Shown piece after piece: positions 10,037 to 51,131 of a stretch of 64,000 bases of DNA. Source of the DNA: an uncultured Hormoscilla sp. (GTDB lineage: Bacteria > Cyanobacteriota > Cyanobacteriia > Cyanobacteriales > Desertifilaceae); NCBI GenBank assembly GCA_963921275.4, contig OZ001293.3:5024001-5088000 (forward strand). The letters are read 5' to 3'. A program made the position numbers and the translations under genes. Position 1 is the stretch's first letter, and the number at the start of each line of letters is the position of its first letter. The notes beneath the pieces were generated by a model, which searched no databases, had not been told where the DNA came from, and saw nothing but the letters and a program-made list of their open reading frames with translations.

Positions 10037-10907
10037 GGATGGGGTCGAGCCGGGAATCGCTTCCCGACCCTCCCTTGAGGAACCGGACTTGCGATTTTCA
10101 CCGCATCCGGCTACTGGGTACTAGGCCCTTTTCATAGGTAGACTTAATAGGAATTACTTCCGTTAGCCCTTGCCGCCTGTCTTTTCTTCCCTTTCCTGGT
10201 TTAGCGAGTGGTTGTTCTGATAACCGTTAGTATCACCATTTTCAAGTCAGTTTTACCAGTTATCCATACCTTATCCTCCACTTGCGTTTCGGATTAGTTC
10301 CGTGGCTTTTTAGGATTACTCATTCCAGCAGCTTCCTAGTATCACCGACCCACGTCAGCGCTGGCTACCCAGCATCATCTACATTACTGTAGATGTTATC
10401 CCAGGAATTACCCCGGGCATTCGCTTCTTGGGCCATCCCTCCCCCCGTGGCTTGCGCTTAACATCTAACTTGTCCTGATGGACAGCACACGAGAGGTTAC
10501 TTCGTTCCCTAACAACATTTCGCGATACCTTTAGGTCCACACTATACCCCGGGAGCTATTTGAGTACTATATTAGCCAGAGTCTAAAACTAATACTAGCT
10601 ACCATTTCCTTTTTAGGCCAGCGCATATAGCCTTATTTCGCTGGTTCCTTATAACGAGGCTTGCACATGTTTGCCTGCTCTAACCTTGGATATCTTTCCT
10701 AGCGGCGTCACCGGCTTAGGCTGCCAGTTATCCTACATTTGAGTCCTCGCTTAGCACCACGATGATGTCGCTTCGTAGCACCGAGGACCGGTGTCACCCC
10801 CGTACCTGGGGGGAGGGGAATTTAACCCCCATGCGGTCAGAGTTCCCGGCTAATGAAACCGGGCTAGCGTTCCGTGTTTGACCACGTTAGGCTAGAACGA
10901 ATCGCAC
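10037..10907 (-). mobile_element. ORF-less group II intron, copy 1 (871 nt), inserted in a REP-like repeat
   Basis: GTGCGATTCGTT start; D5 TAGCCGGATGCGGTGAAAATCGCAAGTCCGGTT; D6. An empty-site allele is visible at ~11172-11200. Confidence 0.92.
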
Positions 10908-11203
10908 AAACCCAACCTACAGCCATTAGCCATTCGCAATTAGCAATTAGACCATTTTGTCAAAATGTGGTTACAATTTTTAACCATTATCCTATTAGTC
11001 GGTTTTAACCGACTTTAGCTATTAGCCGGGGGTTTGAACCCCCGGCGGGCTGACGGCGGGCTGACGGCAGGCTGACAGCGAAGTGAGTAAGTTCGGTTGA
11101 CGCCAGTTTTTAGTTCGTAGGTTGGGTTGACGCCAGGAAACCCAACAAAGATCGCAGTAACACGGGTTTGCTTGAGGAACGAAACCCAACCTACAGCCAT
11201 TAG

Positions 11204-11347
11204 CTAAAGTGCTTACTACAAACCTTCGGAAGCACTAAAGTGCTTACTACAAACCTTCGGAAGCACTAAAGTGCTTACTACAAACCTTCGGAAGCACTAA
11301 AGTGCTTACTACAAACTGCAAACAAAGGTTCGTAGTAAGCACTTTAG
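11204..11347. repeat. 31-nt tandem repeat (3.6 units) plus an inverted copy
   Basis: CTAAAGTGCTTACTACAAACCTTCGGAAGCA units start at 11204, 11235, 11266 and 11297. Related motifs occur at ~23030, ~23490 and ~51150. Confidence 0.8.
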
Positions 11348-11362
11348 TCCTTCTTAATAAGG

Positions 11363-13775
11363 TCACTTCCACTCCCGCACTTCGGGCATATCCTGACCGT
11401 GCTTTGCGATATAATGCTTGTGTTCGATCAGCCGATCGCGGATATTCTGTTTAGCATAAGCAGCAGCATATCCCAATTGGGGCACCCGATCGATCGCATC
11501 CGCCGCTAGGTGAAAGCGATCAAGGTCATTGCGGACGACCATATCAAAGGGAGTAGTAGTAGTACCCTCTTCCTTATAGCCTCGGACATGGAGATTTTGG
11601 TGGTTAGTCCGGCGATAGGTAAGGCGATGGATCAGCCAGGGATAGCCGTGATAGACGAAGACGATCGGTTTATCAGTAGTAAAGATAGTATCGAAGTCTC
11701 GATCGGACAGACCGTGGGGATGTTCGCTTTGAGGTTGCAGGGTCATCAAGTCAACCACATTCACCACGCGGATCTTCAGTTCCTGAAATTGTTGACGGAG
11801 AAAGTCCACTGCTGCTAGAGTTTCCAAGGTAGGAACATCCCCAGCGCAAGCCATCACCACATCGGGTTCCGAACCCTGGTCGTTACTGGCCCATTCCCAA
11901 ATGCCAATTCCAGCAGTACAATGCTCCATCGCCGCCTTCATGTCCAGGTATTGTAAGGAGGGTTGCTTACCCGCGACAATTACATTCACATAGTTGCGGC
12001 TCCGCAGACAATGGTCGGTCACGGACAGGAGAGTATTAGTATCAGGGGGTAGGTAAACCCGAATCACGTCCGCCTTCTTGTTGATTACGTGATCGATAAA
12101 GCCAGGGTCTTGGTGGGAAAAGCCATTGTGGTCTTGTCGCCAGACATGGGAAGTCAGCAGGTAGTTCAGAGAGGCGATCGGGCGACGCCAAGGAATTTCG
12201 TTGCGAGTAGTTTTCAGCCACTTAGCATGTTGGTTAAACATGGAGTCGATCAGGTGAATGAACGCCTCGTAGCAGGAGAAGAAGCCGTGGCGACCGGTGA
12301 GGAGATAGCCTTCCAGCCAGCCTTGGCAGGTATGTTCGCTGAGAATTTCCATCACCCGACCGTTGCTAGCCAGGTGGTCGTCTTCGGGGAGAAAATCAGC
12401 TACCCAGGTGCGATCGGTGGCTTCAAACAGGGCGCTGAGACGGTTAGAAGCAGTTTCGTCGGGACCGAACACCCGGAAGTTGGTCATGTTTTGCTTCATC
12501 ACGTTCCGCATAAAACCTCCCATGACTCGGATGGCTATGGCTGCGCCACGCTGCGCGATCGGCGAAGGTGGTGGCTGGTTTGGAGACTTCGATCCCATAG
12601 TCCCGGAAGTCGGGCATTTTCAAGTCCCTCAGCAGGATGCCACCGTTAGCGTGGGGGTTGGCACCCATGCGCCGACCGCCCTTGGGTGCCAGTTCTGCCA
12701 ATTCTGGAATTAATGTGCCATTCTCGTCAAAGAGTTCTTCGGGTTTGTAACTCTTCATCCAGTCTTCCAGCAGTTGGACGTTTACTGGTTTCGTTGCCAT
12801 TTCCGAGAACGGTACTTGGTGACTGCGCCAGTAATCTTCCGTTTTCTTGCCATCCACTTCCTTGGGACCTGTCCAACCCTTGGGCGATCGCAAGACAATC
12901 ATCGGCCATTGGGGGCGCTGGGTAAAGCCCTTGCGGCGGGCATCCTGCTGAATGGCTTTGATATCTGCGATCGCCCGTTCCAGGGTGGCCGCCATCAACT
13001 GGTGCATAGTTTCCGGGTCGGACCCCTCAACAAAATAGGGTTTATAACCGTAACCGACAAACAAGCTTTCCAACTCTGAATGGGAGATCCGGGCCAAAAC
13101 CGTAGGATTAGCAATTTTATAGCCATTCAGGTGTAAAATGGGCAGGACCGCACCATCATGAACCGGGTTAAGGAACTTATTAGAATGCCAACTGGTAGCC
13201 AGGGGACCAGTTTCCGCCTCCCCGTCACCAACAACGCAAGCAACGATCAAGTCCGGGTTATCGAAAGCAGCGCCATAAGCATGAGAAAGAGCATAACCCA
13301 GTTCGCCCCCCTCGTGGATAGAACCCGGGGTTTCCGGGGCTACGTGACTGGGGATCCCGCCGGGGAAAGAGAACTGCTTGAAAAGTTTCTTCATCCCCTC
13401 AGCATCCTGGGAAATATTCGGGTAAACTTCAGTGTAAGTACCCTCCAGGTAAGTATTAGCAACCAACCCGGGACCGCCATGACCCGGACCTGCAATATAG
13501 ATAATATTCAGGTCTAGAGCCTTAATCATCCGGTTGAGGTGAACGTAGATAAAATTAAGACCTGGAGTAGTGCCCCAATGTCCCAACAGCCGAGGTTTAA
13601 CATGTTCTAGTTTCAGAGATTCTTTGAGCAGGGGGTTGTCAAACAGATAAATTTGTCCCACCGAAAGGTAGTTCGCCGCCCGCCAGTAAGCATTCATCGA
13701 GCGCAACTCTTCTGGGGCGAGGGTTTTTTCTGAAGTTATCGCCGTAGCTATGGGTCTTTCCGTTGTAACTGTCAT
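11363..13775 (-). pseudogene. xfp: Phosphoketolase, frameshifted by a 22-nt insertion
   Basis: [16 protein letters not shown] and [17 protein letters not shown] motifs are split over two frames. Removing 12537-12558 restores ...[13 protein letters not shown]. Confidence 0.92.
12537..12558 (-). mobile_element. 22-nt micro-insertion, variant A (TCGCGCAGCGTGGCGCAGCCAT)
   Basis: Other copies at 14436-14457 and 24540-24561; all lie in a CCGW^AGC context. Confidence 0.85.
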
Positions 13776-14932: not shown

Positions 14933-16149
14933 ATGAAAATATTGGTACTAAACGCGGGTTCGGTTCTCAGAAAAGTTGTCTGTATGAAATAGCTGAGAAG
15001 ACATTACCCCAACAACCTCCCAAACCACTTTGGGAAGCGAATATAGACTGGAGTGGAACGCTGCGCGAAAAATCGACAGATTTTGGAGAAATGAAGGTTA
15101 AAGCTAAAGGAGTTAAGCTAGAAGTTAAACTGCCAGGGCGAGAAGGGGCAATCGCCCAAATGCTAGAGACTCTCAGTCAGGAAAAAACCCAGGTATTGCA
15201 GCAGTTATCAGAAATAGATATCGTCGGACATCGGGTGGTACATGGAGGTGCAGAATATACGAGGGCTACCTTCATTACTCCCGAAGTTAAAGAGGCGATC
15301 GCCCGCCTAGTACCCCTAGCACCCAGTCACAACCCAGCCCATTTAGAGGGAATAGAAGCGATCGAGGAAGTATTAGGCAAGGTGCCCCAGGTAGCAGTAT
15401 TTGATACAGCCTTTCACAGCCAGATGCCGAAAGCCGCTGTAGTGTATCCGATCCCCTACGAGTGGTTTGAGCAAGGCATCCGTCGCTATGGGTTTCACGG
15501 CACGAGTCATAAATATGCATCAGGAAGGGCGGCCCAAATACTGGGAAAATCCCTAGGAGAACTGCGACTGATTACTTGTCATTTGGGCAATGGCTGCTCC
15601 TTGACAGCCGTCAAGAATGGAGTAAGTATTGATACAACAATGGGGTTCACGCCCCTGGAAGGGTTAATGATGGGAACTCGCAGTGGTTCCATCGACCCAG
15701 CAATCATAATCTACTTGATGCGCCAGCATAATTACGACGTCGATAAATTAGATCGAATGCTGAACAAGGCTTCGGGGTTAAAAGGAATTATGGGAAAATC
15801 CGGAGATATGCGCCATGTTTTGCAGGCGATCGCCGAGGGTGACGAACAGGCGCAACTGGCCTTTGACATGTACGTGCATCGCCTGCGTGCAAGCATAGGA
15901 TCTATGGTTGCGAGTCTGGGCGGTTTAGAGGCGATAGTCTTTACCGCAGGCGTTGGCGAAAATGCAGCAGCAGTAAGGGAGGCCACTTGCGCCGGGTTTG
16001 AGTTCCTGGGGTTGAAACTGGACAAAGAAAAAAATCTCTCATCCCCAAAAGACATAGATATTGCTACCCTAGACTCAGCGGTGCGCGTGTTGGTGGTGCA
16101 GACAGCAGAAGATTGGGCGATCGCCTGCGAATGTTGGTATCTTGGTTAA
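14933..16149 (+). pseudogene. ackA: Acetate kinase, frameshifted near codon 11
   Basis: MKILVLNAGS at 14933 is out of frame with the GHRVVHGG / GFHGTSH / FTAGVGEN body. In-frame 15-nt insertion at 15058-15072. Confidence 0.88.
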
Positions 16150-19690: not shown

Positions 19691-20562
19691 GTGCGATTCG
19701 TTCTAGCCTAACGTGGTCAAACACGGAACGCTAGCCCGGTTTCATTAGCCGGGAACTCTGACCGCATGGGGGTTAAATTCCCCTCCCCCCAGGTACGGGG
19801 GTGACACCGGTCCTCGGTGCTACGAAGCGACATCATCGTGGTGCTAAGCGAGGACTCAAATGTAGGGATAACTGGCAGCCTAAGCCGGTGACGCCGCTAG
19901 GAAAGATATCCAAGGTTAGAGCAGGCAAACATGTGCAAGCCTCGTTATAAGGAACCAGCGAAATAAGGCTATATGCGCTGGCCTAAAAAGGAAATGGTAG
20001 CTAGTATTAGTTTTAGACTCTGGCTAATATAGTACTCAAATAGCTCCCGGGGTATAGTGTGGACCTAAAGGTATCGCGAAATGTTGTTAGGGAACGAAGT
20101 AACCTCTCGTGTGCTGTCCATCAGGACAAGTTAGATGTTAAGCGCAAGCCACGGGGGGAGGGATGGCCCAAGAAGCGAATGCCCGGGGTAATTCCTGGGA
20201 TAACATCTACAGTAATGTAGATGATGCTGGGTAGCCAGCGCTGACGTGGGTCGGTGATACTAGGAAGCTGCTGGAATGAGTAATCCTAAAAAGCCACGGA
20301 ACTAATCCGAAACGCAAGTGGAGGATAAGGTATGGATAACTGGTAAAACTGACTTGAAAATGGTGATACTAACGGTTATCAGAACAACCACTCGCTAAAC
20401 CAGGAAAGGGAAGAAAAGACAGGCGGCAAGGGCTAACGGAAGTAATTCCTATTAAGTCTACCTATGAAAAGGGCCTAGTACCCAGTAGCCGGATGCGGTG
20501 AAAATCGCAAGTCCGGTTCCTCAAGGGAGGGTCGGGAAGCGATTCCCGGCTCGACCCCATCC
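19691..20562 (+). mobile_element. ORF-less group II intron, copy 2 (872 nt), intergenic
   Basis: Matches the other copies apart from one extra G near 19865. Confidence 0.92.
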
Positions 20563-26018: not shown

Positions 26019-26197
26019 GCAGCTACCACCGCCGCCCTCACCCTAAGGGGCTACACGAACAAAGCCCGCCTGCGCGGGCTAGATTACTTGCATCGAGATG
26101 TTCCCCTAGGATTCGTTTTTCAGAGTATATCCCTGAACTTCGATATCAGGTCGCAATTTCACTTCAATTCGAGTTCTAGTCTGCTCAATATCAGGTG

Positions 26198-27085: not shown

Positions 27086-27157
27086 GCATTTCAGCCCTCT
27101 GACAGCTAGGAGTCCTCGCAAAACCTTGAGGTATTGACGCGGTTTCTGGCTCCTGGC

Positions 27158-27560
27158 GCGATCGCCCCTCCGACCGGAAGACCAAGAAACCGGGTTAGAG
27201 CGATAATTTGGGCTCCTGACGCCAGATTTGGTAAAAGAAACAAAGGTGATGGCTTCTGGCGCGATCGCCTCTCTGACCCGAAGACCAAGAAACCGGGTTT
27301 CACCTGATAATTTGGGCTCCTGGCGACAGATTTGATAAAAGAAACAAAGGTGATGGCAAGACCGTGATCGCCTCTCCGACCCGAAGACCAAGAAACCGGG
27401 TTTTACCCGATAATTTTGGCTCGGCAGATTTGATAAAAGAAACAAAGGTGATGGCAAGACCGCGATCGCCCCTCCGACCCGAAGACCAAGAAACTGGGTT
27501 AGAGCGATAATTTTGGATCCTGGCGACAGATTTGATAAAAGAAACAAAGGTGATGGCAAG
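27158..27560. repeat. Four ~100-bp tandem units, each starting at a HIP1 or HIP1-like site
   Basis: Units begin at 27158, 27261, 27364 and 27462. Confidence 0.85.
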
Positions 27561-27771
27561 GTAACAGCAGGACTTAGGAAACAAATTAGTTATTCGACTA
27601 AAGCATGTTTCTACTTGTTTTCTAGTTACGTTATGTACATATTGAACCCGCGTTCTTTTACGCAAAGGTTTGAACATTATATTCATTGATTCTTTTAGTA
27701 AATCTTCTAATTGATAATTGTTATAAATTTTGTCTCCATAAACTTTTGATGGCAAATCAAAGCAATTGGAG

Positions 27772-30161
27772 ATTAAACTAAGCCAGTCCGTCACCGGACC
27801 GACTCGTCTTCAGAACCGGACGTGAGACTTTCACCTCATCCGACTCCTCGGCAACATCACCCTTGTCATGGGTACGGCTGTTTTTGCTGCCACCGTTGAC
27901 AGTCTTTGAGTCGTGGCAATGCTTGTGCAGTAATTGTAGGTTGTCATACCGGTCCTTACCTCCTAATGAAAGGGGCTTGATCTGGTCAACTTCCCATTTG
28001 TCACTGTCCTTGAATGTTAGTCCGCAGTGTTGGCATTTTCCTTTTTGCTTCTTAAGTAGCGTTGCTACCCTCTTACTCAATTCGGGGTTTTTGCCTAACC
28101 TTGTACTCCAATATGTAAGGTTCCCGTCATATGGGCTTGCTATTCCTTTCACTTTTACGTGTCTGACTATCTCAGTTTCGGAGTGTTTGCGCAGCGTTAT
28201 CTCTCCCTCTCCTGTCTTACATCGGAATCGCCATTTACCATCCTGGTCTACGGACCAGTACTTACGGGCTATCCAGTGACTTGACTTATTAGGGTGCCTC
28301 CTTTTGGCCCATTGCCATAGGATGTTCCATAGGTATTTATCCATATCGTTGTAAGTTTCCTTACTTACCACTGTCCTGTAATAGTTTGACCATCCCCGTA
28401 TTATTGGGTTTAGCCTACTTATCAAGGCCTCTTGCGGTATTGTTTTATGGCTAGTTACCACTTCTGATAACCGTTCTTTATGTTTCCCTATGGACTTTTT
28501 ACTGGGTTTGATTAGGGTTTTGTAGCCTAGGGGTGTTCCCTGAGTTGATTTGCCGGTTCTGTGTTTTCCCACCTGATGTTGCCTTACGTTGAATCCTAGG
28601 AAATCAAACCCCGGGTTTTCTTCGATTAGTGTGTGGGCTATCTTTGTCTTTTCGGCTTTCAGCTCTAACCCCATTCCTTTTAGCCACTCTGCTACCACTG
28701 TCTGCGCTCTGTCTATCATCTCCCTATCCTCGTGCATTATCACAAAGTCGTCTGCATATCTAACTACTGTTAGCTTCTGCTTTTCCCTTTGTGTCATAGC
28801 GAGTTTCTTTACTGCCTCCTCTAACCCGTGGAGGGCTATGTTGGCTAGCAGTGGGGATATGACACCCCCTTGGGGCGTTCCCGCCTCGGTTGCGTGCCAC
28901 TCCCCTTTGTCCATCACACCGGCTTTTAACCATGCCCGTATTTGTCTAGGAATGGGTGATGTTGTATTCAGTTTTTCCAGTAGCGCCCTGTGGTCTATCT
29001 TGTCAAAACATTTTGCAATATCAGCATCCAATACCCACTTTGATTTTTGTTTGATGCTTCCGAATATTGCCTGTATTGCATCGTGACATCCCCTACCCGG
29101 TCTGAAACCATAGGAGTTTCCTTCCATATGCGCCTCCCATTCGGGTTCAAGCGCAATTTTGAGGAGTCCTTGTGTCGCCCGGTCGTACATCGTTGGTATT
29201 CCTAGTGGACGCTTTTCGTCTCTCCCTGGTTTTGGTATCCATACACGACGTGTAGGTTTGGCCTTGTTTGAGATTTCAATTTGTCCTACCAGTTCTAAGC
29301 GTTGCTTTGGGGTCAGTGCTTTTACACCGTCCACTCCCGCTGTCTTCTTTCCCTGGTTGTCTTGAGTTACCTGTCGTACCGCTAGACTTTTGGCAGCCCG
29401 GGATTTTACCAGTAACCTTTGGAGTCTGCGAACCGTTCGCTTATTGCCTTCCATTGCCGCTCTGTAAATTCGTTTTTGCAACTTAAAGACTACCCGATCC
29501 AACTTTCGCCAGGGGGTATCCTTCCATTCATTCATCGATTCGGAGATCGTGCTCATGACGTATGCATTGCTACTTACAACTTCACAATTGACGTTACCGT
29601 GAGGGCGTCAGCATATCCCGTCCATTACAGAAGGGCGTTAGCTTCTCCACGAAATCTCTCCCAGATACAACCTGCCAAATAAAAGCAGATGTTGCGCCTG
29701 TGGTGGCTACTCAACCTATCGACCTGTGGTTGAGAGTATGTACCTGGTTTACTTCGTTCCTCTAGATGATTGGTCGTAGTTTTAGGTGGACTTTCTATGC
29801 CGGGTTTATTGTCAGTGCTTATTGGTCGGAAAAACAACCGCCAATGACCTGTATCCTTTCCCTTTTGGGCCAGCGCATCAGCCTTTTCGCTGGTTCAATG
29901 TAACGACACTTATATGAGTCTTTGCTTTCGCTCACCATGACTACTTGCTTGGCGGTAACTGGTTCAGGCTACCAGTTATTGCGCCTTTCTTACCCGCTTT
30001 ACGGATTGATGCCATCGCTACCGTCGGGTAAGTGCTGTCACTCCTGCACCTGGAGGGGTGGACTTTCACCACCATCATCTAGAAGTTGTCAGGGCTGATG
30101 GAACCCTGCCAGTGGTCCCCCATCGACTTATCGCCGGTGGTTTACACTAAACGAATCGCAC
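27772..30161 (-). mobile_element. Full-length group II intron (IIB/CL-like), 2390 nt
   Basis: GTGCGATTCG at 30161 and TTAGTTTAAT at 27772. The exons rejoin as NDAKI|LQ of the IS982 transposase. Confidence 0.95.
27778..29556 (-). CDS. ltrA: Group II intron reverse transcriptase/maturase with C-terminal HNH domain
   Basis: 592 aa with RPLGIP, GTPQGG, YADD, X domain (LNPIIRGWSNYY) and CQHC...DNLQLLHKHCH. Confidence 0.95.
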   Translation of the reverse strand: MSTISESMNEWKDTPWRKLDRVVFKLQKRIYRAAMEGNKRTVRRLQRLLVKSRAAKSLAVRQVTQDNQGKKTAGVDGVKALTPKQRLELVGQIEISNKAKPTRRVWIPKPGRDEKRPLGIPTMYDRATQGLLKIALEPEWEAHMEGNSYGFRPGRGCHDAIQAIFGSIKQKSKWVLDADIAKCFDKIDHRALLEKLNTTSPIPRQIRAWLKAGVMDKGEWHATEAGTPQGGVISPLLANIALHGLEEAVKKLAMTQREKQKLTVVRYADDFVIMHEDREMIDRAQTVVAEWLKGMGLELKAEKTKIAHTLIEENPGFDFLGFNVRQHQVGKHRTGKSTQGTPLGYKTLIKPSKKSIGKHKERLSEVVTSHKTIPQEALISRLNPIIRGWSNYYRTVVSKETYNDMDKYLWNILWQWAKRRHPNKSSHWIARKYWSVDQDGKWRFRCKTGEGEITLRKHSETEIVRHVKVKGIASPYDGNLTYWSTRLGKNPELSKRVATLLKKQKGKCQHCGLTFKDSDKWEVDQIKPLSLGGKDRYDNLQLLHKHCHDSKTVNGGSKNSRTHDKGDVAEESDEVKVSRPVLKTSRSGDGLA

Positions 30162-30800
30162 AATTTTCGCATCATTACAACTACCAGGAGCAAAATAAAA
30201 TTGGTTTACCAGTTTTGTTGACTAACATATGAACTCTCAATAAAAATAACGTTTTTTGCTGGCGATATATCCTCTATATTCTTCTTCTGTATAAATTTTA
30301 CATCGCTCGTGTTGTCACATCCTGGCACAGGGAAACTATCGATAATATATTCTTGACCCGGATTTAGCGAATGATTGAGCCATTGCTTGAAATAAACTCC
30401 CATACAATTGTTTCATCAATCTTATGTTTTCGACGATTAAACCTACTTTTACTTAACAGATTTTTGATCTAGTTATGTTCTGCCATAAATTGACGAGCTC
30501 TATCGCCCTCCCAAAAAATAAGCAGCAACTAATCCTACTGTCATCACCTCCGCACTATTCATTTTTACTTGTGGATCTTCTTTGATATTGAGTGCTTTTA
30601 GCAGTTCATCGCCAAGAACAAAAATTGTTATAATCATATTTTCCATAATCTACCGCAATCAACTGTTATTTTAGTACATTATAACCTATAAACAGGGATG
30701 GCTACTGATAGCATAAAAATAATATATTTCTGTATCCTACCAAAAATATCGGAAATCTCTAAGTGGGTAATCCATTTTTTTTAATAGGTAGCAACTTGAG

Positions 30801-31736: not shown

Positions 31737-31863
31737 CCCCTAAATAAATTTGCCCCGATCCTGCCCTGAGATTGTCTCAGACCCTTTGATGTTATAATTT
31801 CTGAGAGATTTTTCCAGCAAATGTAGAAAGGCGGCTAAAAGCCCGAAATTGGAGAAGACATAC

Positions 31864-34800
31864 ATGACCACCAGCTACAGCGCCGAGCAAATTCAAGTGC
31901 TCGAAGGTTTAGAACCGGTCAGAAAAAGACCGGGGATGTACATCGGCACTACTGGCCCCAGAGGACTCCATCATCTAGTATACGAGGTAGTTGACAACTC
32001 GATCGATGAAGCCCTAGCTGGCCACTGCTCCCATATCGAAGTAGATATCAATGCCGAGGGTTCTGTTACCGTCACAGATGATGGCCGGGGTATCCCCACA
32101 GACATTCATCCCCGTACTGGCAAGTCGGCATTGGAAACGGTGATGACCGTACTCCACGCTGGCGGTAAGTTTGGTGGCGGTGGCTACAAGGTTTCCGGAG
32201 GATTGCACGGTGTCGGGGTCTCGGTGGTGAATGCCCTGTCTGAATGGTTGGAAGCTACCGTTTGGCGATCGGGGCAGATCCATACCCAACGCTTTGAACG
32301 GGGCATCCCCATCAAGGAACTTACTTCCCAACCCGATACAGAAACCCGCACTGGCACTTCCATCTCCTTCATGCCCGATATCCAAATCTTTACTACGGGC
32401 ATCGAGTTCGATTACGATACCTTGGCCAGGCGCTTGCGGGAGTTGGCCTACTTGAACGCTGGGGTCAAAATTACCTTTAGCGATCGCCGACTGGAAGAAC
32501 CACGGATCGAAAGCTATCAATACAATGGGGGCATTCAAGAATATGTTGCCTACATGAATCGGGAAAAGCAAGCCTTGCATGAGGAAATTATCTATATGCA
32601 GGGAGAAAAAAATGATGTCCAGGTAGAAGTGGCTTTGCAGTGGTGCGTCGATGCCTATACGGACAATTTGCTGGGGTTTGCCAATAATATCCGCACTATT
32701 GATGGCGGTACTCACCTGGAGGGGTTGAAGACTGTCCTGACTCGGACCATGAATTCGATCGCCCGCAAGCGCAATAAGCTGAAAGAAAATGAATCCAACC
32801 TGAGTGGGGAGAATATCCGCGAAGGTTTAACAGGGGTAATTTCTGTCAAGGTGCCCGATCCGGAATTTGAAGGACAGACGAAAACCAAGCTGGGGAATAC
32901 AGAAGTGCGGGGCATTGTTGATTCCCTCGTGGGAGAACGTCTCACTGAGTATCTGGAATTTAGCCCCGCTGTCGCCCATGGGATCTTAGAGAAGGCAATT
33001 CAAGCTTTTAATGCGGCAGAAGCGGCACGACGGGCCCGGGAATTAGTCCGCCGTAAATCAGTCTTAGAATCCTCTACTTTACCAGGTAAATTGGCTGATT
33101 GCAGCGAACGAAACCCCGCAGAAACAGAGATATTTCTGGTCGAAGGCGATAGCGCTGGCGGTTGTTTTTTTGGAGATACACTTGTAGCCTTGGCAGATGG
33201 GCGCTCTCTCAGCTTCAAAGACATTATTGCCGAACAAGCCCAAGGAAAAGAACATTTTTGCTATACCGTTCGCCCTAGCGGAAAAATCGCGATCGAACGC
33301 ATCATTAACCCCCGGATGACTAAGGCAAATGCTGAAGTCGTCCAAGTGACATTAGATAATGGGGAAACTCTAATATGCACTCCCGATCACCCGTTCATGT
33401 TGCGGGATAGCAGCTATAAACCAGCGGCATTGCTGACACCAGCAGATTCCCTCATGCCACTCTATCGCCAGCTCTCCCGCAAGCATGAAAACTGTTCGGG
33501 AATAGATGGCTACGAAATGGTTTGGAATACCCATCAGAATCAGTGGATTTATACACATCTGTTGGCGGATTTTTATAACCTCCGCAATAATGTATATCTG
33601 TCATCAGATGGCAATCATAGCCATCATGTCGATTTCAATAAACTCAACAACAACCCGACAAATATAAAACGGCTGCCTGCGGAGGAACACTTGGCCTTAC
33701 ATCGCGCTAACCTTGAATTCACCCTGCATCGTCCGGACGTGATAGAAAAAAGCCGCCAAGTTCACAGGAGTGAAGAGTTTCGTGCGATGATGAGCGAACG
33801 GATGCAGCAACCAGAAACGCGGAAAATTCTCTCGGAACAGGCTAAGGCCCAGTGGGAAGATGAAGCCTACAAAGCTTATATGCAAGGCAAGTGGCGCGAG
33901 TTTTATGAAGGCAATGAAACTTATCGGCAGGATTTGCACGATCGATTGTACCAAGCGCAGTTAGAGTATTGGAGTGATGAAGCAAACCGTATAACTCAAG
34001 CCGAACGGGTTCGCAACTACTATGCAAATAATCCCGAAGCACGGTCCGAACTTTCATCAATTGCCCAACAGCAATGGCAAGATGAAGAATTGTTGGAGTG
34101 GTGCTCTCAAAAGACACGGGAACAATGGACGCCAGAATTTCGGACCAAGCGTCGTGTTGCACTCAATGAAACATATTACCGCAAAACTATCGAGGCATTA
34201 AAAAAAGTTCACCGCCAGGAAGGTTATATGGATCTGGAACTGTACGCTCGTTACCGTCGCCAAACCCGAGACAAGTCTCTGTTGAAATTCCAGACGTTCT
34301 GCGATCGCTATTTTGCAGGGGATGACGTGCTAGCGCGTCAAGCAATTCGCAATTACAACCATCGCATTGTGTCCGTCGAACGGGTGGAAGAACGGGTGGA
34401 TGTTTACGACATCGAAGTTCCCCATACTCATAACTTCGCGCTAGCAAGTGGAGTGTTTGTCCATAATAGTGCTAAGCAAGGACGAGACAGGCGTTTTCAG
34501 GCCATTCTGCCTCTGCGGGGGAAAATTCTCAATATTGAGAAGACTGATGACGCGAAAATCTACAAGAACAATGAAATTCAGTCCTTGATTACAGCCCTAG
34601 GTTTGGGGATTAAGGGTGAGGAATTTGACCCGAATAATCTGCGCTATCATCGGATCGTGATCATGACGGACGCTGATGTAGATGGCGCGCACATCCGCAC
34701 CCTGTTGTTGACCTTTTTCTATCGCTATCAGCGGAATCTTGTCGATCGCGGCTATGTCTATATTGCCTGTCCTCCTCTCTATAAGGTGGAACGGGGACGC

Positions 34801-35091
34801 AATCATTTCTATTGCTATAGCGATCGGGAACTGCAAGAACGCCTCAAGGAGTTGCCCCAGAATGCCAATTATAACATTCAGCGGTTCAAAGGTTTGGGTG
34901 AAATGATGCCCCAACAGCTGTGGGATACTACTATGAACCCGGACACGAGGACCATGAAACGGGTGGAAATTGAAGATGCTGCTGAAGCTGACCGCATCTT
35001 TACGGTGCTGATGGGCGATCGGGTGGCCCCCCGCCGCGAATTTATCGAAACCTACGGACCCAAACTTAATCTGACTGATTTGGATATCTAA
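31864..35091 (+). CDS. gyrB: DNA gyrase subunit B precursor with intein
   Basis: VRKRPGMYIG, GGLHGVG, EGDSAGG|intein|SAKQ, PLRGKILN and MTDADVDG motifs. Confidence 0.97.
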   Translation: MTTSYSAEQIQVLEGLEPVRKRPGMYIGTTGPRGLHHLVYEVVDNSIDEALAGHCSHIEVDINAEGSVTVTDDGRGIPTDIHPRTGKSALETVMTVLHAGGKFGGGGYKVSGGLHGVGVSVVNALSEWLEATVWRSGQIHTQRFERGIPIKELTSQPDTETRTGTSISFMPDIQIFTTGIEFDYDTLARRLRELAYLNAGVKITFSDRRLEEPRIESYQYNGGIQEYVAYMNREKQALHEEIIYMQGEKNDVQVEVALQWCVDAYTDNLLGFANNIRTIDGGTHLEGLKTVLTRTMNSIARKRNKLKENESNLSGENIREGLTGVISVKVPDPEFEGQTKTKLGNTEVRGIVDSLVGERLTEYLEFSPAVAHGILEKAIQAFNAAEAARRARELVRRKSVLESSTLPGKLADCSERNPAETEIFLVEGDSAGGCFFGDTLVALADGRSLSFKDIIAEQAQGKEHFCYTVRPSGKIAIERIINPRMTKANAEVVQVTLDNGETLICTPDHPFMLRDSSYKPAALLTPADSLMPLYRQLSRKHENCSGIDGYEMVWNTHQNQWIYTHLLADFYNLRNNVYLSSDGNHSHHVDFNKLNNNPTNIKRLPAEEHLALHRANLEFTLHRPDVIEKSRQVHRSEEFRAMMSERMQQPETRKILSEQAKAQWEDEAYKAYMQGKWREFYEGNETYRQDLHDRLYQAQLEYWSDEANRITQAERVRNYYANNPEARSELSSIAQQQWQDEELLEWCSQKTREQWTPEFRTKRRVALNETYYRKTIEALKKVHRQEGYMDLELYARYRRQTRDKSLLKFQTFCDRYFAGDDVLARQAIRNYNHRIVSVERVEERVDVYDIEVPHTHNFALASGVFVHNSAKQGRDRRFQAILPLRGKILNIEKTDDAKIYKNNEIQSLITALGLGIKGEEFDPNNLRYHRIVIMTDADVDGAHIRTLLLTFFYRYQRNLVDRGYVYIACPPLYKVERGRNHFYCYSDRELQERLKELPQNANYNIQRFKGLGEMMPQQLWDTTMNPDTRTMKRVEIEDAAEADRIFTVLMGDRVAPRREFIETYGPKLNLTDLDI
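33163..34467 (+). mobile_element. GyrB intein, 435 aa, with HNH-type endonuclease domain
   Basis: Starts CFFGDT, block B CTPDHPF, ends FVHN followed by Ser; internal HHVDFNKLNNNPTN. Confidence 0.93.
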
Positions 35092-40333: not shown

Positions 40334-41157
40334 GTGCGATTCGTTCCGGTGTAAACCAGTATGGTGAAAATCGGGTCTGGTTCCATTAGCCAGATAACTC
40401 TGGTAATCATGGGGGTTAAATTCCCCTCCCCCAGGTGCGGGGGTGACACCGGTCCTCGGTGCTGCGTGGCGACATCGACGTGGTGCTAAGCGAGGACTTA
40501 AATGTAGGATCGCTGGCAGCCTAAGCCGGTGACGCCGCTAGGAAAGATGCTAATGGTTAGAAGAAGCGAACCTATATAAGCCTCATCACATGGAAGCAGC
40601 GGAATAAGGCTAAAGCGCTGGCCCAAAAGGGAAATGGTAGTTGGTATTAGTGGTAGTATTTCACTAATAACTTACTCGAAGAACTCCCGGGGTAAAGTAG
40701 GGACCTAAAAGCATCGTGAAATGATATCAGGGAACGAAGTAACCCCTCGTTAGCTGTCCTCATTTGGACAAGTTAGATGTTAAGCGAAAGCAACGAGGGT
40801 AGGGATGTCCTAAGAAGCTAATGCTCGGAGTAATATTCGTAGATATGCTGACGTCGGACGGTGATCGTAGGAAATTTCAGGCTAAAGTACCTCTAATAAG
40901 CCTCGATACCAAGTTTAAGCTATGGTTGGATAACTGGTAAAACGGACCTAGAAAACGGTGAAACTAAAGGTTATCTGGCAGCGCCACTCACCGACCAGGA
41001 AAGGGGAGAAATTACATGAGATGAGGGAGAACGGGAGTAATCCCGAGTAATCCTATCAATGACAAGGCCTACTGCCCAGTAGCCGGGTGCGGTGAAAGTC
41101 GCAAGCCCGGTTCCGCTCTTGGAGGGTTGGGGAGTGATTCCCAGCTCGACCCCGACC
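40334..41157 (+). mobile_element. ORF-less group II intron, diverged sister variant (824 nt)
   Basis: GTGCGATTCGTT start; D5 TAGCCGGGTGCGGTGAAAGTCGCAAGCCCGGTT. EBS1 AGTATT pairs fully with 5' exon AATATT (one G-T). The 3' end is placed by homology. Confidence 0.88.
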
Positions 41158-41176: not shown

Positions 41177-43555
41177 GGTTCTTCTCAATCTAGTATGCTA
41201 AAATAGGTCTTGAAGTTGATGCGCCCGCTCAACGGGAGATCCTGAAAGCCGGAAAACCTTTCCCACCTTGACATTCAGCAACTATTTGTGGTATAATCTA
41301 GCTCTCTAGAAAAAACAGGAGAATTTATAAGATGCCACGCTCGAAAAAATACTAACAACATTGTTAAACATTCCAGAGGTGAAAGTTGTCGGGTATACCA
41401 AGACTCATTTAACAGAAGTGATGATGACAATTGAGGCAGAAAAAAAAGAAGCAATTTGCCCTAGATGTCATCAGAAAAGTCAGCGATTGCATCAGAACCA
41501 TCATTATTTAATTAAGGATTTACCCTGGGGAGAAAAAAAGTTTTTCATCAATCGCCGACAAGTGCGCTCGCTGTTTGAAACCGTGAGAAATTGTCATATG
41601 TAGAAGGTCGGCGTAAATATACGAAGAGACTGGGAGAACAAGTGGTTCGAGAAGTATTAAATGGGGATATTATTAATATAGCGCTTCGGTATGACTTAAA
41701 AGAATCTGAGGTTCAACAAATGCTATCGGGACAGGTGAAAATTGAACCGAACTAAAAAAGTTAGGGATCGATGAAATTGCGTTGGTAAAAGGGCAACGTA
41801 ATTATTTAGCTGTTTTAGCCGTGTCTCCTGGGAGCGCTATTCGCACTACCCAGGAGACACGGCGTGGACATTGAGAATAGCAAACTTCTGGAAATAGTTA
41901 ACTCAAGTTGCGACCTATAAAAATTGGATACAAAAAGCTATGATAAAGAGAATTATTTTCAACTCTAATCCCTTAGATGTAACAGCATGAATTGACTTGG
42001 GAAACAAATTGGTGATTCGACTAAAACAGGTTTCAACTTGTTTTCTTGTTACTTTTTGTATATATTCAAAACAAGAATATTCTTTTCTTTTTGAGTTCTT
42101 TTTTCGCAAAGGTTTTAACATTATACTTGACGACTCTTTTAGTAAATCCTCTAATTGATAATCATTATAAGCTTTATCTCCATAAACTATTGAATTTGAT
42201 GGTAAGTCAAAGCCAAAAGATTGCAAAACTTTAACATCATTATAACTACCAGGATCTAGATAAAATTCTATTGGCTTTCCATTTTTGTTTACCAACATAT
42301 GAACTCTTAATCCATAAAAATAACGTTTTTTACTGGCAATATACCCTCGATATTCTTCCTTGTTATAAATTTGGCATCTATCAATCCTAATATTATCACA
42401 TACTGGCACCGGAAAACTATCAAGAATATATTCTTGACCCGGATTGAGCTCTTTAAATGTTTGAGCTATAACTTGGAAGAAAAACATCCAAATTGGTTCG
42501 TCAATATTGTGTAATCGACGATTGAACCTACTTTTACTTAACAGATTTTTTATATACTTGTGTTGGACCATAAATTGACAAGAGCGATCGTGGTGTCCTC
42601 CGAAAAAATATGCAGCAACTAATCCGACTGTCATCACTTCGGCATTGTTCATTTTTACTTGTGGATCTTCTTTTATATTTAACGCTTTTAGTAGCTCGTC
42701 ACAAAGAACAAAAATTGTTGTAATCATATCTTCCATCATCTACATCCCCCAGCAATTAACTATTATTTTAGTACATTATAACCTATAAACAGCCAACCCG
42801 CCGTCTAGCACAAAAAAAATATAATTTTGTATCAAAAGCTACGAAATATCCTAAATATCTGTAAAGTCTAAGTGGGTAATTCATATTTTTTTTAATAGGT
42901 CGCAACTTAGGTTAGTTAAGTCTCGGCGACGATCTGCGAGAAGTCTTGCTATCATGGGATGTTGAATGCTATTGAAGAAGTGAGTATAGATATGTGGAAA
43001 CCGTATCAAAGTTTAGTGGAAGAATTGATGCCTAATGCTGAAGTTATAGCTGACCGTGTGACTAAGCAAGTAAATGAGGAATTAGATAATTGTCGAAAAC
43101 AAAAATGAAGCCCCAAAAATCAAGAAAGAGTCAGAAAAAAAATAATTATTATCGGGATTAAATAAAAATAAAAAATGAAGAAAATTTTAAAAAAACAATA
43201 AATTAAGCTGAAATAAATTCAAAAATAAATTACAAAATTGGGAAAAATGCACCGAGGATCAGCTACATATATGAGAGGTCCGAAAAGTCGAAAAATCCCA
43301 CCTTACAAATGAGCGATTGGCTTCTAGATGCAAAAGAATATTTTTCCGTGTGAGGACAATTATTAGATGGTTCGGAGAAATTGTCGGTTATTTTGAATCA
43401 GGGAAAACTCAAGGAACTGTGTCAGGAATAAATAACCGTCTCAAGTTAATTAAGCGTAGGGGATATGGGTTCAGAAATCTGGAAAATTTTTGCTTGCGTA
43501 GTCTACTTTCCTGGTGCTTTTAGCATCAATCTAGCATACTAGATTGAGAAGAGCC
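41177..43555 (+). mobile_element. ISL3-family IS, degenerate, with a nested hairpin repeat (41819-41864) and a nested IS982
   Basis: TIRs GGTTCTTCTCAATCTAGTATGCTA / TAGCATACTAGATTGAGAAGAGCC; LGIDEIA and GINNRLKLIKRRGYGFRN. Confidence 0.85.
41901..42912 (-). mobile_element. IS982-family IS with an open transposase ORF (41915-42739)
   Basis: TIRs ACTCAAGTTGCGACCTA / TAGGTCGCAACTTAGGT, 6-bp TSD TAGTTA; ILDSFP, YGDKAY and RKQVET. Confidence 0.9.
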
Positions 43556-46060: not shown

Positions 46061-48695
46061 TTGAAGTGCTCGTATCAGGACCTTACCGTTATAAAAGTGT
46101 TTAATCGGATACATTTCAGGAATCTGCGCGGCGACATCTTCGGAGGTGTCACAGCCGCAGTTATCGCTCTACCAATGGCTCTAGCCTTCGGGGTCGCCTC
46201 GGGCGCTGGAGCAGAAGCCGGTCTTTACGGAGCCGTATTAGTAGGATTGTTTGCCGCCCTGTTCGGCGGCACCCCGACCTTGATTTCCGAACCCACCGGT
46301 CCGATGACCGTGGTGATGACGGCAGTAATCGCCTCTCTGACTGCCGCTAACCCAGAAAACGGTTCAGCAATGGCCTTTACCGTGGTGATGCTGGCAGGAA
46401 TATTTCAGATCGTCTTCGGTTTATTGAAGTTGGGTAAGTACATTACCCTGATGCCCTACACCGTGATTTCCGGTTTCATGTCGGGAATTGGACTGATCAT
46501 GATCTTCCTTCAGATCGGTCCTTTCCTGGGACAAGCTAACCCCAAGGGCGGCGTTATCGGGGTAATTAGCAACTTGCCCAACTTATTGGCAAATATGAAT
46601 CCGGTCTCGACCGGTTTGGCAGGCTTGACAGTGGCCATTCTGTTCTTAACACCAAAGCAAATGAAGCGAGTGGTGCCGCCGCAACTGATGGCATTAATCG
46701 TGGGGACCGTGGTTTCTCTGATGTTCTTCCCGGATGTTGATATTCGACGAATTGGCGAGATCCCGAGTGGTTTGCCCAGCTTACAAATGCCTTTCTTTAC
46801 TGTAGAGCAACTACAGACGATGTTAGTCGATGCTGTAGTGCTAGCAATGCTCGGTTGCATTGACGCTTTGCTAACCTCGGTGATCGCTGACAGCTTGACT
46901 AGTACTCAACATGACTCGGATAAAGAATTGATCGGTCAAGGCATCGGTAACCTGGCTTCTGGACTATTTGGAGGAATTGCTGGAGCTGGTGCGACGATGG
47001 GAACCGTGGTCAATATCCAAGCGGGTGGAAAAACCGCCGTATCTGGCTTAACTCGCGCTGGCATCTTGCTGATTGTTGTCTTGTGGGCAGGGGGTTTGAC
47101 CCAGAATATTCCCCTGGCAGTCCTCGCTGGCATCGCCCTCAAGGTCGGGATTGATATTATCGATTGGAGTTTCCTCAAACGCGCTCATCAAGTATCCATT
47201 AAGGGTGCCTTGATTATGTATGGGGTGATCGGACTAACCGTATTTGTTGACTTGATTGCGGCTGTGGGGCTGGGAGTTTTTGTCGCTAATCTGTTGACGA
47301 TTAAGCGCCTGACGGATCTGCAATCTCAGGATGTCAAGACGGTTACCGATGCTGATGATGAAATCCTCTTGAGTCCGGAAGAGAAAGAACTACTCAATCA
47401 AGCTGACGGTCGCGTGCTCTTGTTCCACCTCAGCGGTCCGATGATCTTTGGGGTTTCTAAGGCGATCTCCCGCCAGCAAACAGCAATGAAAGACCACGAG
47501 GTGCTGATTCTGGATCTCAGCGACGTGCCCCTGCTAGGCGTCACTTCTTCTCTGGCGATCGAGAATGCGATCAAAGAAGCTTGCGATAACGGTCGTCACG
47601 TCTTCATTGTCGGTGCCGCAGGCGAAATCAAACGGCGGTTGGAAAAATTTTGCATTTTGCAAATGTTACCTCCGCAACACCTGGTGATGGAGCGCAAGGA
47701 CGCACTCAAGCAAGCAGTTGCCCTGGTTAATGGCTATGATGCCAATGATACTCTTAATGGGTATGTGCGATTCGTTCTAGCCTAACGTGGTCAAACACGG
47801 AACGCTAGCCCGGTTTCATTAGCCGGGAACTCTGACCGCATGGGGGTTAAATTCCCCTCCCCCCAGGTACGGGGGTGACACCGGTCCTCGGTGCTACGAA
47901 GCGACATCATCGTGGTGCTAAGCGAGGACTCAAATGTAGGATAACTGGCAGCCTAAGCCGGTGACGCCACTAGGAAAGATATCCAAGGTTAGAGCAGGCA
48001 AACATGTGCAAGCCTCGTTATAAGGAACCAGCGAAATAAGGCTATATGCGCTGGCCTAAAAAGGAAATGGTAGCTAGTATTAGTTTTAGACTCTGGCTAA
48101 TATAGTACTCAAATAGCTCCCGGGGTATAGTGTGGACCTAAAGGTATCGCGAAATGTTGTTAGGGAACGAAGTAACCTCTCGTGTGCTGTCCATCAGGAC
48201 AAGTTAGATGTTAAGCGCAAGCCACGGGGGGAGGGATGGCCCAAGAAGCGAATGCCCGGGGTAATTCCTGGGATAACATCTACAGTAATGTAGATGATGC
48301 TGGGTAGCCAGCGCTGACGTGGGTCGGTGATACTAGGAAGCTGCTGGAATGAGTAATCCTAAAAAGCCACGGAACTAATCCGAAACGCAAGTGGAGGATA
48401 AGGTATGGATAACTGGTAAAACTGACTTGAAAATGGTGATACTAACGGTTATCAGAACAACCACTCGCTAAACCAGGAAAGGGAAGAAAAGACAGGCGGC
48501 AAGGGCTAACGGAAGTAATTCCTATTAAGTCTACCTATGAAAAGGGCCTAGTACCCAGTAGCCGGATGCGGTGAAAATCGCAAGTCCGGTTCCTCAAGGG
48601 AGGGTCGGGAAGCGATTCCCGGCTCGACCCCATCCATATCGCAGATCAATGATACTTCATCCAATCAGGATATAGTCAATGCCAATAACTTTTGA
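46061..48695 (+). CDS. bicA: SulP-family Na+-dependent bicarbonate transporter; C-terminal tail interrupted by an intron (exon 2 = 48636-48695)
   Basis: IHFRNLRGDIFGGVTAA, LISEPTGPMT, STAS domain; followed by a Na+/H+ antiporter remnant. Start codon uncertain. Confidence 0.88.
47765..48635 (+). mobile_element. ORF-less group II intron, copy 3 (871 nt), sense orientation in bicA
   Basis: One G>A difference near 47969 versus the other copies; phase-0 insertion. Confidence 0.92.
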
Positions 48696-49377: not shown

Positions 49378-49611
49378 ATGTCACAGAAAACTTTTGAGAT
49401 TACTAAGTTATCTGAGAACTTAATAGATTTATTGTCTGATATTCAGAATCAAACAGAGGTGCTGTTGATTCGTGAGGGACTGCCTTTGGCTAAGGTTATG
49501 CCATTGCCAGTTGAGCAACCAGTGACACCCAAGGTCGGGTTAAATTATGGGGCAATGGTGATGAGTGATGATTTTGATGAGCCTTTACCTGATGCTTTTT
49601 GGGGTCTATGA
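49378..49611 (+). CDS. Antitoxin of a PIN-type toxin-antitoxin pair
   Basis: MSDDFDEPLP C-terminal motif; ATGA overlap with the PIN gene. Confidence 0.7.
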   Translation: MSQKTFEITKLSENLIDLLSDIQNQTEVLLIREGLPLAKVMPLPVEQPVTPKVGLNYGAMVMSDDFDEPLPDAFWGL

Positions 49612-49832
49612 AAGTTTTATATGATACTCATGCGTTTATTTGGTGGGATAGTCAGCAACAACAGTTATCAAATGAGATTGTGGAGTTTTTGCTACAACCG
49701 GATACAATGAAAGTTGTTAGTGTTGTGAGTTTGTGGGAAATTAAAATTAAAAGTCAGTTGGGAAAGTTAACCCTCAATCAACCTTTAGAAAAATTTACCA
49801 GAGTCAAAGTCAAAATGGAATCTCCTTTTTAG
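49608..49832 (+). pseudogene. PIN/VapC toxin, frameshifted and truncated
   Basis: MKVLYDTHAFIWW and SVVSLWEIKIK; lacks the C-terminal half. Confidence 0.7.
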
Positions 49833-49871
49833 CGGTGAATCCTGGGTGTGGTCAAAACCCGTTGATCTTGC

Positions 49872-51131
49872 CTGGCTCCTTTGCGGGCACCGCCGAGCTA
49901 GTCTTCCCCACCGAGAGTGCTGCAACCCTAGTAGCAGTGCTCACGAGGGAGGATCCCGAAAGTCCGGAACTGGATGGGGTCGAGCCGGGAATCGCTTCCC
50001 GACCCTCCCTTGAGGAACCGGACTTGCGATTTTCACCGCATCCGGCTACTGGGTACTAGGCCCTTTTCATAGGTAGACTTAATAGGAATTACTTCCGTTA
50101 GCCCTTGCCGCCTGTCTTTTCTTCCCTTTCCTGGTTTAGCGAGTGGTTGTTCTGATAACCGTTAGTATCACCATTTTCAAGTCAGTTTTACCAGTTATCC
50201 ATACCTTATCCTCCACTTGCGTTTCGGATTAGTTCCGTGGCTTTTTAGGATTACTCATTCCAGCAGCTTCCTAGTATCACCGACCCACGTCAGCGCTGGC
50301 TACCCAGCATCATCTACATTACTGTAGATGTTATCCCAGGAATTACCCCGGGCATTCGCTTCTTGGGCCATCCCTCCCCCCGTGGCTTGCGCTTAACATC
50401 TAACTTGTCCTGATGGACAGCACACGAGAGGTTACTTCGTTCCCTAACAACATTTCGCGATACCTTTAGGTCCACACTATACCCCGGGAGCTATTTGAGT
50501 ACTATATTAGCCAGAGTCTAAAACTAATACTAGCTACCATTTCCTTTTTAGGCCAGCGCATATAGCCTTATTTCGCTGGTTCCTTATAACGAGGCTTGCA
50601 CATGTTTGCCTGCTCTAACCTTGGATATCTTTCCTAGCGGCGTCACCGGCTTAGGCTGCCAGTTATCCTACATTTGAGTCCTCGCTTAGCACCACGATGA
50701 TGTCGCTTCGTAGCACCGAGGACCGGTGTCACCCCCGTACCTGGGGGGAGGGGAATTTAACCCCCATGCGGTCAGAGTTCCCGGCTAATGAAACCGGGCT
50801 AGCGTTCCGTGTTTGACCACGTTAGGCTAGAACGAATCGCACAGATTCCCTGAAGATTGGCAAACTGAAGTAGGCAATATCGCGATCAATGGTGTTATGG
50901 GTTCAATAGGCAATGTGCTAGATAAGCCCCCTAACCTATGTTCTTCCCACTTACATAGAGGAGGAAGTGGAGCATTTGATGCCAGTCAAGCAGTCTGATG
51001 CTAACACAACTGTGCTCTTGGCACAAGCGCGTTTTGATATCGAAGAACTGCAAGTTCAAGGAGACATTGTGCTGTTTTTCGATGTCGGTTCTTTCAATGC
51101 CTTGCTCGCGGCGATCGAGCAGGTAGGATGA
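49872..51131 (+). pseudogene. CheC-like chemotaxis phosphatase remnant, interrupted by intron copy 4 in antisense
   Basis: AELVFPTESAATLVAVLT...EL|DSLKIG...EVGNIAINGVMGSIGNVL...YVLPTYIE...GDIVLFF. Confidence 0.7.
49972..50842 (-). mobile_element. ORF-less group II intron, copy 4 (871 nt)
   Basis: No differences from copy 1 noticed by eye. Confidence 0.92.

Follow-up and report, generated by a model that had tools for sequence, protein, structure and literature searches.

The stretch of DNA studied here, 64,000 nt from an uncultured Hormoscilla sp. (assembly GCA_963921275.4, contig OZ001293.3, forward-strand positions 5,024,001 to 5,088,000), is called the window below, and positions are counted from its first base. 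It carries four near-identical copies of a group II intron, which we refer to as the S family, located in a short dispersed repeat, between two genes, and in the genes bicA and cheC. We consider it likely that the four elements are copies of one non-autonomous intron devoid of an open reading frame (ORF), which is helped in trans and has recently spread. The copies are the following:

10037-10907, minus strand: S-family ORF-less group II intron, copy 1; 871 nt, with exon-binding site 2 (EBS2) at 10646-10651, EBS1 at 10579-10584 and domain 5 (D5) at 10081-10112
19691-20562, plus strand: S-family copy 2; 872 nt, one extra G
47765-48635, plus strand: S-family copy 3; 871 nt, one single-nucleotide polymorphism (SNP)
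49972-50842, minus strand: S-family copy 4; 871 nt, same sequence as copy 1

A repeat search and an alignment showed that copies 1 and 4 are identical and that the four copies differ from each other at 0 to 2 positions. The extra G of copy 2 is found at intron position 175, within a run of G, and copy 3 has a G to A change at intron position 205. These results reproduce all the positions and lengths, as well as the one indel and one SNP, reported by a first-pass annotation of the same DNA. Since the longest stop-free stretch of the intron is only 58 amino acids, the family is ORF-less, and no ORF of 80 amino acids or more lies wholly inside any copy. All four copies match the Rfam family RF00029 (group II D5/D6) with 44.4 bits against a gathering score of 40, so that the earlier naming of the element as an ORF-less group II intron stands. 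When a profile of the family was run against the window with nhmmer, no additional S-type copy or fragment was found.

Relatives and ribozyme structure

The window contains one related ORF-less intron, here called c5:

40334-41157, plus strand: c5, related ORF-less intron; 824 nt, 75% identical to S

Further relatives came from a scan of public genomes with a 25-base stretch of D1, which gave at least five loci, the matches listed all belonging to Hormoscilla sp. GUM202. Two of these loci (L002 and L004) hold simple introns of 874 nt that are 91% identical to the S family and in which the site of a nested intron is empty. At the other three (L001:2900-4698, L003:1328-3126 and L005:2900-4698), the 874-nt intron is interrupted in its EBS1 loop by a 925-nt ORF-less relative on the opposite strand, the nested-intron site being identical in all three composites. 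As it is antisense in the outer EBS1 loop, the nested intron cannot be spliced from the outer intron RNA. Over 1806 nt, the L001 composite has 6 mismatches to that of L003 and 6 to that of L005, and the three could have arisen either because homing was repeated in each copy or because the whole composite moved as one element. L001 also holds, immediately upstream of this intron and on the opposite strand, the 3′ part of a further member of the family (L001:2645-2851, profile positions 723-879).

The four copies, c5 and the GUM202 relatives all begin with GUGCG, which fits GUGYG, the conserved 5′ end of group II introns. A consensus fold was built from an alignment of seven sequences, namely c5, the nested intron, two further introns of GUM202 and three of the S copies. 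It has the standard D1-D6 layout, with 247 pairs and 97.5% of cells paired, the structure having been predicted from those same sequences. In this fold, 53 of the 247 pairs are changed on both sides, compared with 18.7 +/- 3.4 in shuffled alignments (0 of 500 reached 53) and with 2 to 7 in controls with slid partners, which supports a six-domain fold kept by compensatory changes. Both variant positions of the S copies, 175 and 205, fall in unpaired columns of the fold, and the RF00029 alignment places a GA bulge in D6. Rfam also includes families for D1-D4 of group II introns; at E <= 1, the window yielded no match to these and no further intron.

Intron boundaries and empty sites

The ends of the S-family intron could be placed to the base by comparison with uninterrupted sites, for which the following features are needed:

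11100-11205, strand not assigned: empty copy of the repeat that hosts copy 1, from the repeat alignment
46061-47764, plus strand: bicA exon 1; 568 codons, with complete Sulfate_transp and STAS domains
48636-48695, plus strand: bicA exon 2; 19 codons and stop, matching the C-terminus of the BicA ortholog P0001

The uninterrupted short repeat at 11100-11205 is 94% identical to the repeat occupied by copy 1. Its positions 14-82 align to 9967-10036 and its positions 83-105 to 10908-10930, and the break-points are contiguous (82 and 83 corresponding to 10036 and 10908), so that the insert is exactly 10037-10907. In bicA, the ortholog P0001 from Hormoscilla sp. GM102CHS1, which is 97% identical in the part used as query, reads ...LNGY followed by ISRINDTSSNQDIVNANNF, and the window reads ...LNGY followed by ISQINDTSSNQDIVNANNF and a stop only in the frame that is opened by removing 871 nt. 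The CheC homolog P0121 reads ESPELDSLKIG, and the homology in the window stops after ...ESPE, where copy 4 starts; when the flanks were translated by hand, the removal of 871 nt continued the frame as L-DSLKIG. A removal of 870 nt, suggested by the cheC frames, was discarded after alignment to homologs, which showed 871 nt to be correct and the frame to change again a few codons downstream. Hand reading puts one further frame shift a few codons past the insertion site; when aligned with CheC homologs, the downstream homology of the gene is divided between two different reading frames that overlap.

With the repeat, bicA and cheC all giving exact 871-nt insertions, the boundaries of the earlier annotation proved correct to the base. 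No target-site duplication (TSD), terminal inverted repeats or common flanks were found at the S copies, whose ends were checked by empty sites in three of the four. The flanks rejoin exactly, and the transposase-type TSDs or shared flank homology that would have contradicted the earlier reading as a burst of a group II intron were looked for and are absent. Together with the 0 to 2 differences between copies and the bicA site that is empty in a 97%-identical ortholog, this supports the proposal that the spread of the S family was recent and that the mechanism behind it generates no TSD and keeps the ribozyme ends exact.

In the group II consensus, the intron ends in AY within a few bases of the branch A. 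According to the empty sites, the S-family intron ends in ...CAUCC, 2 nt past the end of the Rfam model (RF00029 ends in 'Au') and 8 nt after the bulged A of D6. An intron of 869 nt, in which the element ends in ...CAU as in the Rfam model and CC is taken as 3′ exon, was ruled out by four empty-site comparisons, including that of GUM202, where the two uninterrupted and three interrupted intron loops show that a terminal CC belongs to the insert of the related nested intron. The 3′ ends of the relatives are AGCC and GACC; CC is therefore conserved and the two bases that precede it are variable.

Target recognition

The EBS1 of the S family occupies positions 5-10 of a 13-nt terminal loop, and EBS2 an internal loop about 60 nt upstream. 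We newly placed EBS2 by covariation as UAAGGA, at intron positions 257-262. Both elements differ between subfamilies and co-vary with the 5′ exons of each one's own insertions in four subfamilies. In the list below, pair counts are those of EBS2 plus EBS1 against the 5′ exon, each out of 6, wobbles allowed:

S subfamily: EBS2 UAAGGA, EBS1 AGACUC
S copy 1: 3+6 = 9 of 12
S copy 2: 4+3 = 7 of 12
S copy 3: 5+5 = 10 of 12
S copy 4: 5+5 = 10 of 12
c5 subfamily: EBS2 CAUGGA, EBS1 AGUAUU; 5+6
GUM202 outer subfamily: EBS2 AGUAAA, EBS1 UCUAGA; 6+6, 6+6, 4+6, 4+6 and 3+6 in five copies
GUM202 nested subfamily: EBS2 AGAUGA, EBS1 GUCUUC; 5+5 of 12, at the same site three times

For one of the GUM202 outer copies, a better pairing is obtained when intron-binding site 2 (IBS2) is moved by one base, which is not included in these counts. 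When all 127,972 sites of the window were scored on both strands, the mean was 4.30 (sd 1.63), and 9.1% of sites reached at least 7, 0.60% at least 9 and 0.10% at least 10. The EBS1 counts of 6, 3, 5 and 5 out of 6 that had been given for AGACUC were reproduced. However, the description of the targets as unrelated and of the specificity as very relaxed was overstated, since with EBS2 included the number of paired positions out of 12 is 9, 7, 10 and 10 at the four sites, where the average by chance is 4.3. The targets of the S family are degenerate but not unrelated, and their degenerate complementarity is of the kind that ectopic retrotransposition would lead one to expect.

For EBS3, a screen of the alignment columns in the four subfamilies returned one candidate, intron position 364, which fits two of them; the first position of the 3′ exon is C, A, A and A in copies 1 to 4, respectively. 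We also noted that the base at intron position 869, the third from the end, is the same as that at position 364 in three of the four subfamilies (U/U, G/G, A/A).

Insertion contexts and host genes

The contexts of the four copies are those of the earlier annotation, namely a repeat for copy 1, an intergenic position for copy 2, bicA in sense for copy 3 and cheC in antisense for copy 4. The short dispersed repeat hosting copy 1 occurs three times in the window, and its empty copy is adjoined by a perfect 31-nt tandem repeat (3.6 copies, 11204-11316). A GST gene and glgB lie on either side of copy 2, which begins 5 nt past the stop of an unassigned 93-amino acid ORF; no open frame of more than 68 codons spans its site. 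The intron c5 adjoins a response-regulator gene, 7 nt past its stop, within a cluster of cheW and response-regulator genes. Copies 1 and 2 and c5 are all outside recognisable genes, and three of the four S copies, as well as c5, are co-oriented with the flanking genes.

In bicA, copy 3 is inserted in sense 19 codons before the stop, and both Pfam domains end upstream of it. If the intron were left unspliced, the reading would gain 6 residues and stop at 47785, in place of the last 19 residues. The BicA of the window is 97% and 96% identical to those of two Hormoscilla metagenome-assembled genomes (MAGs). Another BicA, P0002 of Hormoscilla sp. GM7CHS1pb (560 amino acids), follows the other orthologs only up to ...LNG, one codon short of the insertion point, and then has just three more residues (VDR). 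This ending might reflect another insertion at or near the same bicA site in that strain.

Copy 4 is antisense in cheC and can therefore not be spliced from the cheC transcript. The identity of this gene was established from 25 homologs of its upstream piece that carry precomputed PF13690 and PF04509 assignments, the named sources reading CheC; Pfam searches with the short cheC pieces and with the ORFs beside copies 1 and 2 gave no relevant match.

Other introns in the window and candidate helpers

Altogether, eight introns account for 9,965 nt, or 15.6% of the bases of the window. The first-pass annotation had named five of them (the four S copies and a carrier of an intron-encoded protein, IEP), all of which were confirmed, and had missed three, namely c5 and two of the following:

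8305-9199, minus strand: ORF-less deletion derivative of an IEP-type intron; D5 below the Rfam threshold
27772-30161, minus strand: ORF-containing group II intron of 2,390 nt; intact IEP at 27778-29556, 592 amino acids
55136-57506, plus strand: second ORF-containing intron, 79.5% identical to the first; IEP frameshifted, D5 below the Rfam threshold

The deletion derivative retains positions 1-707 and 2284-2389 of the full-length intron and has lost positions 708-2283. The second IEP (55742-57497) has at least three frameshifts and is spread over four alternating frame segments. The intact IEP contains the domains RVT_N, RVT_1, GIIM and HNH and also matches TIGR04416, and its ORF extends across D5/D6 and stops 6 nt short of the intron end. 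Its best relative of solved structure is chain C of 6ME0, annotated as a maturase reverse transcriptase (E 4.5e-113), which we take to be that of the T. elongatus intron TeI4h; the named IEP relatives at 66-79% identity come from Hormoscilla MAGs and, together with the BicA identities, place the window in this genus. The local IEP is T.el4h-like but of a diverged lineage. Its intron interrupts an insertion sequence (IS) copy with a DDE transposase (flanks 30162-30400 and 27700-27771), of which an uninterrupted homolog, 76-80% identical, lies 12 kb off at 41915-42739. On the 3′ side of the same intron, some 200 nt away from its end, a 103-nt tandem repeat (4 copies, 27157-27560) was observed.

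An intact related IEP is thus present in the same genome, as is required of ORF-less introns mobilised in trans. The IEP at 27778-29556 had been described as the only local candidate helper, and this holds in so far as it is the only intact IEP in the window. However, the window also contains the second, frameshifted IEP, and the same contig of 6,879,066 bp carries 11 of the 120 IEP clusters listed (that of the window among them), three of these 11 being 588-596 amino acids long. Because at least 10 further IEP clusters occur on this contig, the local IEP is one candidate among many, and we regard its role as the helper of the S family as possible but doubtful.

Proposed mechanism and alternative explanations

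The S-family intron would be transcribed together with the surrounding genes and its RNA would fold into the six-domain ribozyme. A reverse transcriptase (RT)/maturase made by an ORF-containing intron elsewhere in the genome would then assist its splicing and hold it as a lariat ribonucleoprotein (RNP). This RNP would reverse-splice into DNA wherever the 5′ exon pairs adequately with AGACUC and UAAGGA, G-T wobbles included, and target-primed reverse transcription would copy the intron into DNA, leaving no duplication. Splicing, mobilisation in trans and the RT-dependent pathway are steps that we infer.

Several observations weigh against this reading. The 3′ end of the S family is CC instead of the expected AY, and the first D5 pair is flagged as non-standard in the Rfam alignment. 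The intron that carries the local IEP shares about 72-76% identity with the S family over only 131 and 62 nt, and the S profile meets the IEP-type introns in D1 (nhmmer E 6e-31) and in the D5 region (E 2.3e-07) only. When the local IEP was compared by tblastn with all members of the family, no ORF remnant emerged (best E 1.2), and a derivation of the S family from an ORF-containing intron could thus not be traced through such remnants. As for the targets, copy 2 is the sole poor match, its 7 of 12 being near chance with 9.1% of sites reaching that score, and 13 sites of the window that pair at 11 or 12 of 12 positions are all unoccupied, so that pairing is insufficient and does not alone predict insertion. 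Three of these 13 sites (9592, 9993 and 11138, minus strand) lie in the repeat that hosts copy 1, at another GGGTTT.

Alternatively, the S family could move without a dedicated IEP, either by reverse splicing combined with a host or unrelated RT, or by reverse splicing at the RNA level followed by recombination. There is no ORF remnant and no recognisable D4 sequence common to the S family and the local IEP-type introns, and the subfamilies, 71-75% identical and with an alignable D4, appear to have been ORF-less already before they split. Yet related IEP clusters are present on the same contig and, to our knowledge, every bacterial ORF-less intron whose mobility was tested needed a related IEP, which leaves such independence very unlikely. 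One could also suppose that the insertions are old and that their near-identity was kept by gene conversion instead of resulting from a recent burst, given that identical 871-nt repeats within 41 kb are able to recombine and that bicA is the only one of the four sites shown to be empty in another strain. That strain, however, has an ortholog with 97% amino-acid identity, and the empty repeat beside copy 1 is 94% identical to the occupied one. Moreover, GUM202 has a retargeted subfamily (91% identity, with different EBS1 and EBS2) at five listed sites, none of whose flanks is present in the window, which points to independent, lineage-specific spread. We therefore find old insertions homogenised by conversion unlikely.

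Spread at the DNA level, by segmental duplication or as a miniature inverted-repeat transposable element (MITE) moved by a transposase, would find a source of enzyme in the DDE transposase genes of the window (41915-42739 and the IS copy hosting the IEP intron). However, the terminal inverted repeats, TSDs and shared flanks of a MITE are all absent at the S copies, the repeated unit starts with GUGCG, empty sites define its 3′ end for three of the four copies, and its fold is conserved by covariation, so that retromobility is by far the better account and a purely DNA-level process seems highly improbable. Hardly more credible is an assembly artefact in which one or two real copies were pasted into several places. 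The frameshifted genes (xfp, cheC and the second IEP) could reflect indel errors, and the extra G of copy 2 does fall in a G run, but the flanks of every copy are unique and restore a known protein or repeat when joined, two copies have private variants, and on a source contig of 6.88 Mb an 871-nt repeat is unlikely to have been left unresolved. Recent retromobility of an ORF-less intron helped in trans thus remains our preferred explanation.

Comparison with known systems

That ORF-less introns mobilised in trans occur in cyanobacteria had been stated in the earlier annotation, and Thermosynechococcus elongatus provides a precedent for every element of the interpretation (Mohr, Ghanem & Lambowitz 2010, PMC2882425). 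According to that study, T. elongatus has 28 related introns, 17 of which are ORF-less and derive from one deletion event. The ORF-less introns (TeI3) form families split by EBS1, EBS2 and EBS3, and hence by target, and family F3 has seven identical introns. Some insertions at poorly matched sites were interpreted as retrotransposition, introns have also inserted into one another and into IS elements, and the ORF-less ones are mobilised in trans (PMC2882425).

The S family resembles TeI3 in being ORF-less and cyanobacterial, in its sets of near-identical copies, its EBS-defined subfamilies and some poor targets, and in its mostly intergenic or gene-end positions (PMC2882425). Insertion into introns or IS elements is likewise shared, represented here by the IEP intron in an IS copy and by the nested introns of GUM202, and the IEPs of the two systems are alike in kind. 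In contrast to S, TeI3 keeps clear remnants of the N- and C-terminal ORF portions and is 85-100% identical to ORF-containing relatives (PMC2882425), whereas the ORF-less subfamilies of the Hormoscilla type are only 71-75% identical to each other and the nearest ORF-containing introns of the window share only parts of D1 and D5 with S. The 3′ end CC and the antisense nesting in the EBS1 loop in GUM202 also set the Hormoscilla introns apart from TeI3. The intron density of 15.6% concerns one window and the 1.3% reported for T. elongatus (PMC2882425) a whole genome, and the two are not directly comparable. The same source ties intron proliferation partly to high temperature.

With CL/IIB1 introns such as T.el4h and EcI5, the local system shares an IEP with RT, X (GIIM) and HNH domains, a match of the S profile to the D1 of the local IEP-type introns, and the use of both EBS1 and EBS2. 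Unlike them, S has no ORF, and at its 3′ end it extends 2 nt further than the common D6 model. The host, Hormoscilla, is presumably a mesophilic, host-restricted sponge symbiont. Among non-autonomous retroelements, the short interspersed elements (SINEs) borrow the RT of a partner, the long interspersed elements (LINEs), and by analogy S is short, protein-less and derived from RNA, and is present in more copies than its autonomous relatives. It differs from SINEs in being a ribozyme that chooses its target by base pairing and not a Pol III-derived RNA.

Nested group II introns are also known from another filamentous marine cyanobacterium, Trichodesmium, in the form of a twintron whose sequential splicing is reported (Pfreundt & Hess 2015, PMC4649490). 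To judge from the title of that paper, the inner intron of Trichodesmium would be in sense, in contrast to the nested intron of GUM202, which is antisense and in the outer EBS1 loop. A search of one literature library retrieved nothing linking Hormoscilla with group II introns or with introns in general.

Significance

We would propose, as a tentative view that we hold with more doubt than confidence, that the Hormoscilla sponge symbionts host an old and diversified, SINE-like lineage of ORF-less introns. It would consist of at least four subfamilies (824-925 nt, 71-91% identical), each retargeted through EBS1 and EBS2, and would invade at a density far above that of Thermosynechococcus, at ordinary temperatures and at sites pairing 7-10 of 12 positions, even in antisense in each other's EBS1 loop. 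If so, Hormoscilla would be a natural model of intron proliferation under relaxed selection. Bacteria that tolerate many group II introns are rare and are the sole living models for the multiplication of introns before eukaryotes. As the best-studied case is thermophilic, a second one would test which mechanisms are general, and Hormoscilla, in which ORF-less copies are many and nearly identical, subfamilies have been retargeted and introns are nested, is apparently the richer case. In practical terms, the 871-nt repeats and the broken host genes such as cheC are relevant to the annotation of Hormoscilla genomes, and the presence or absence of insertions could be used as a strain marker.

Other features of the window

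Several genes of the window appear to be broken (11363-13775, 15091-16149 and 49751-51131). The phosphoketolase gene (xfp) is split into two overlapping ORFs, acetate kinase starts at profile position 49, and cheC has additional frameshifts. Such broken genes could be due either to decay in a host-restricted symbiont or to indel errors in the assembly. The gyrB gene (31849-35091, 1080 amino acids) contains an intein (Intein_splicing, residues 448-873) between its GyrB and Toprim domains. Finally, a single match to CRISPR-DR28, just over the threshold, was found at 26058-26081, where no array was seen.

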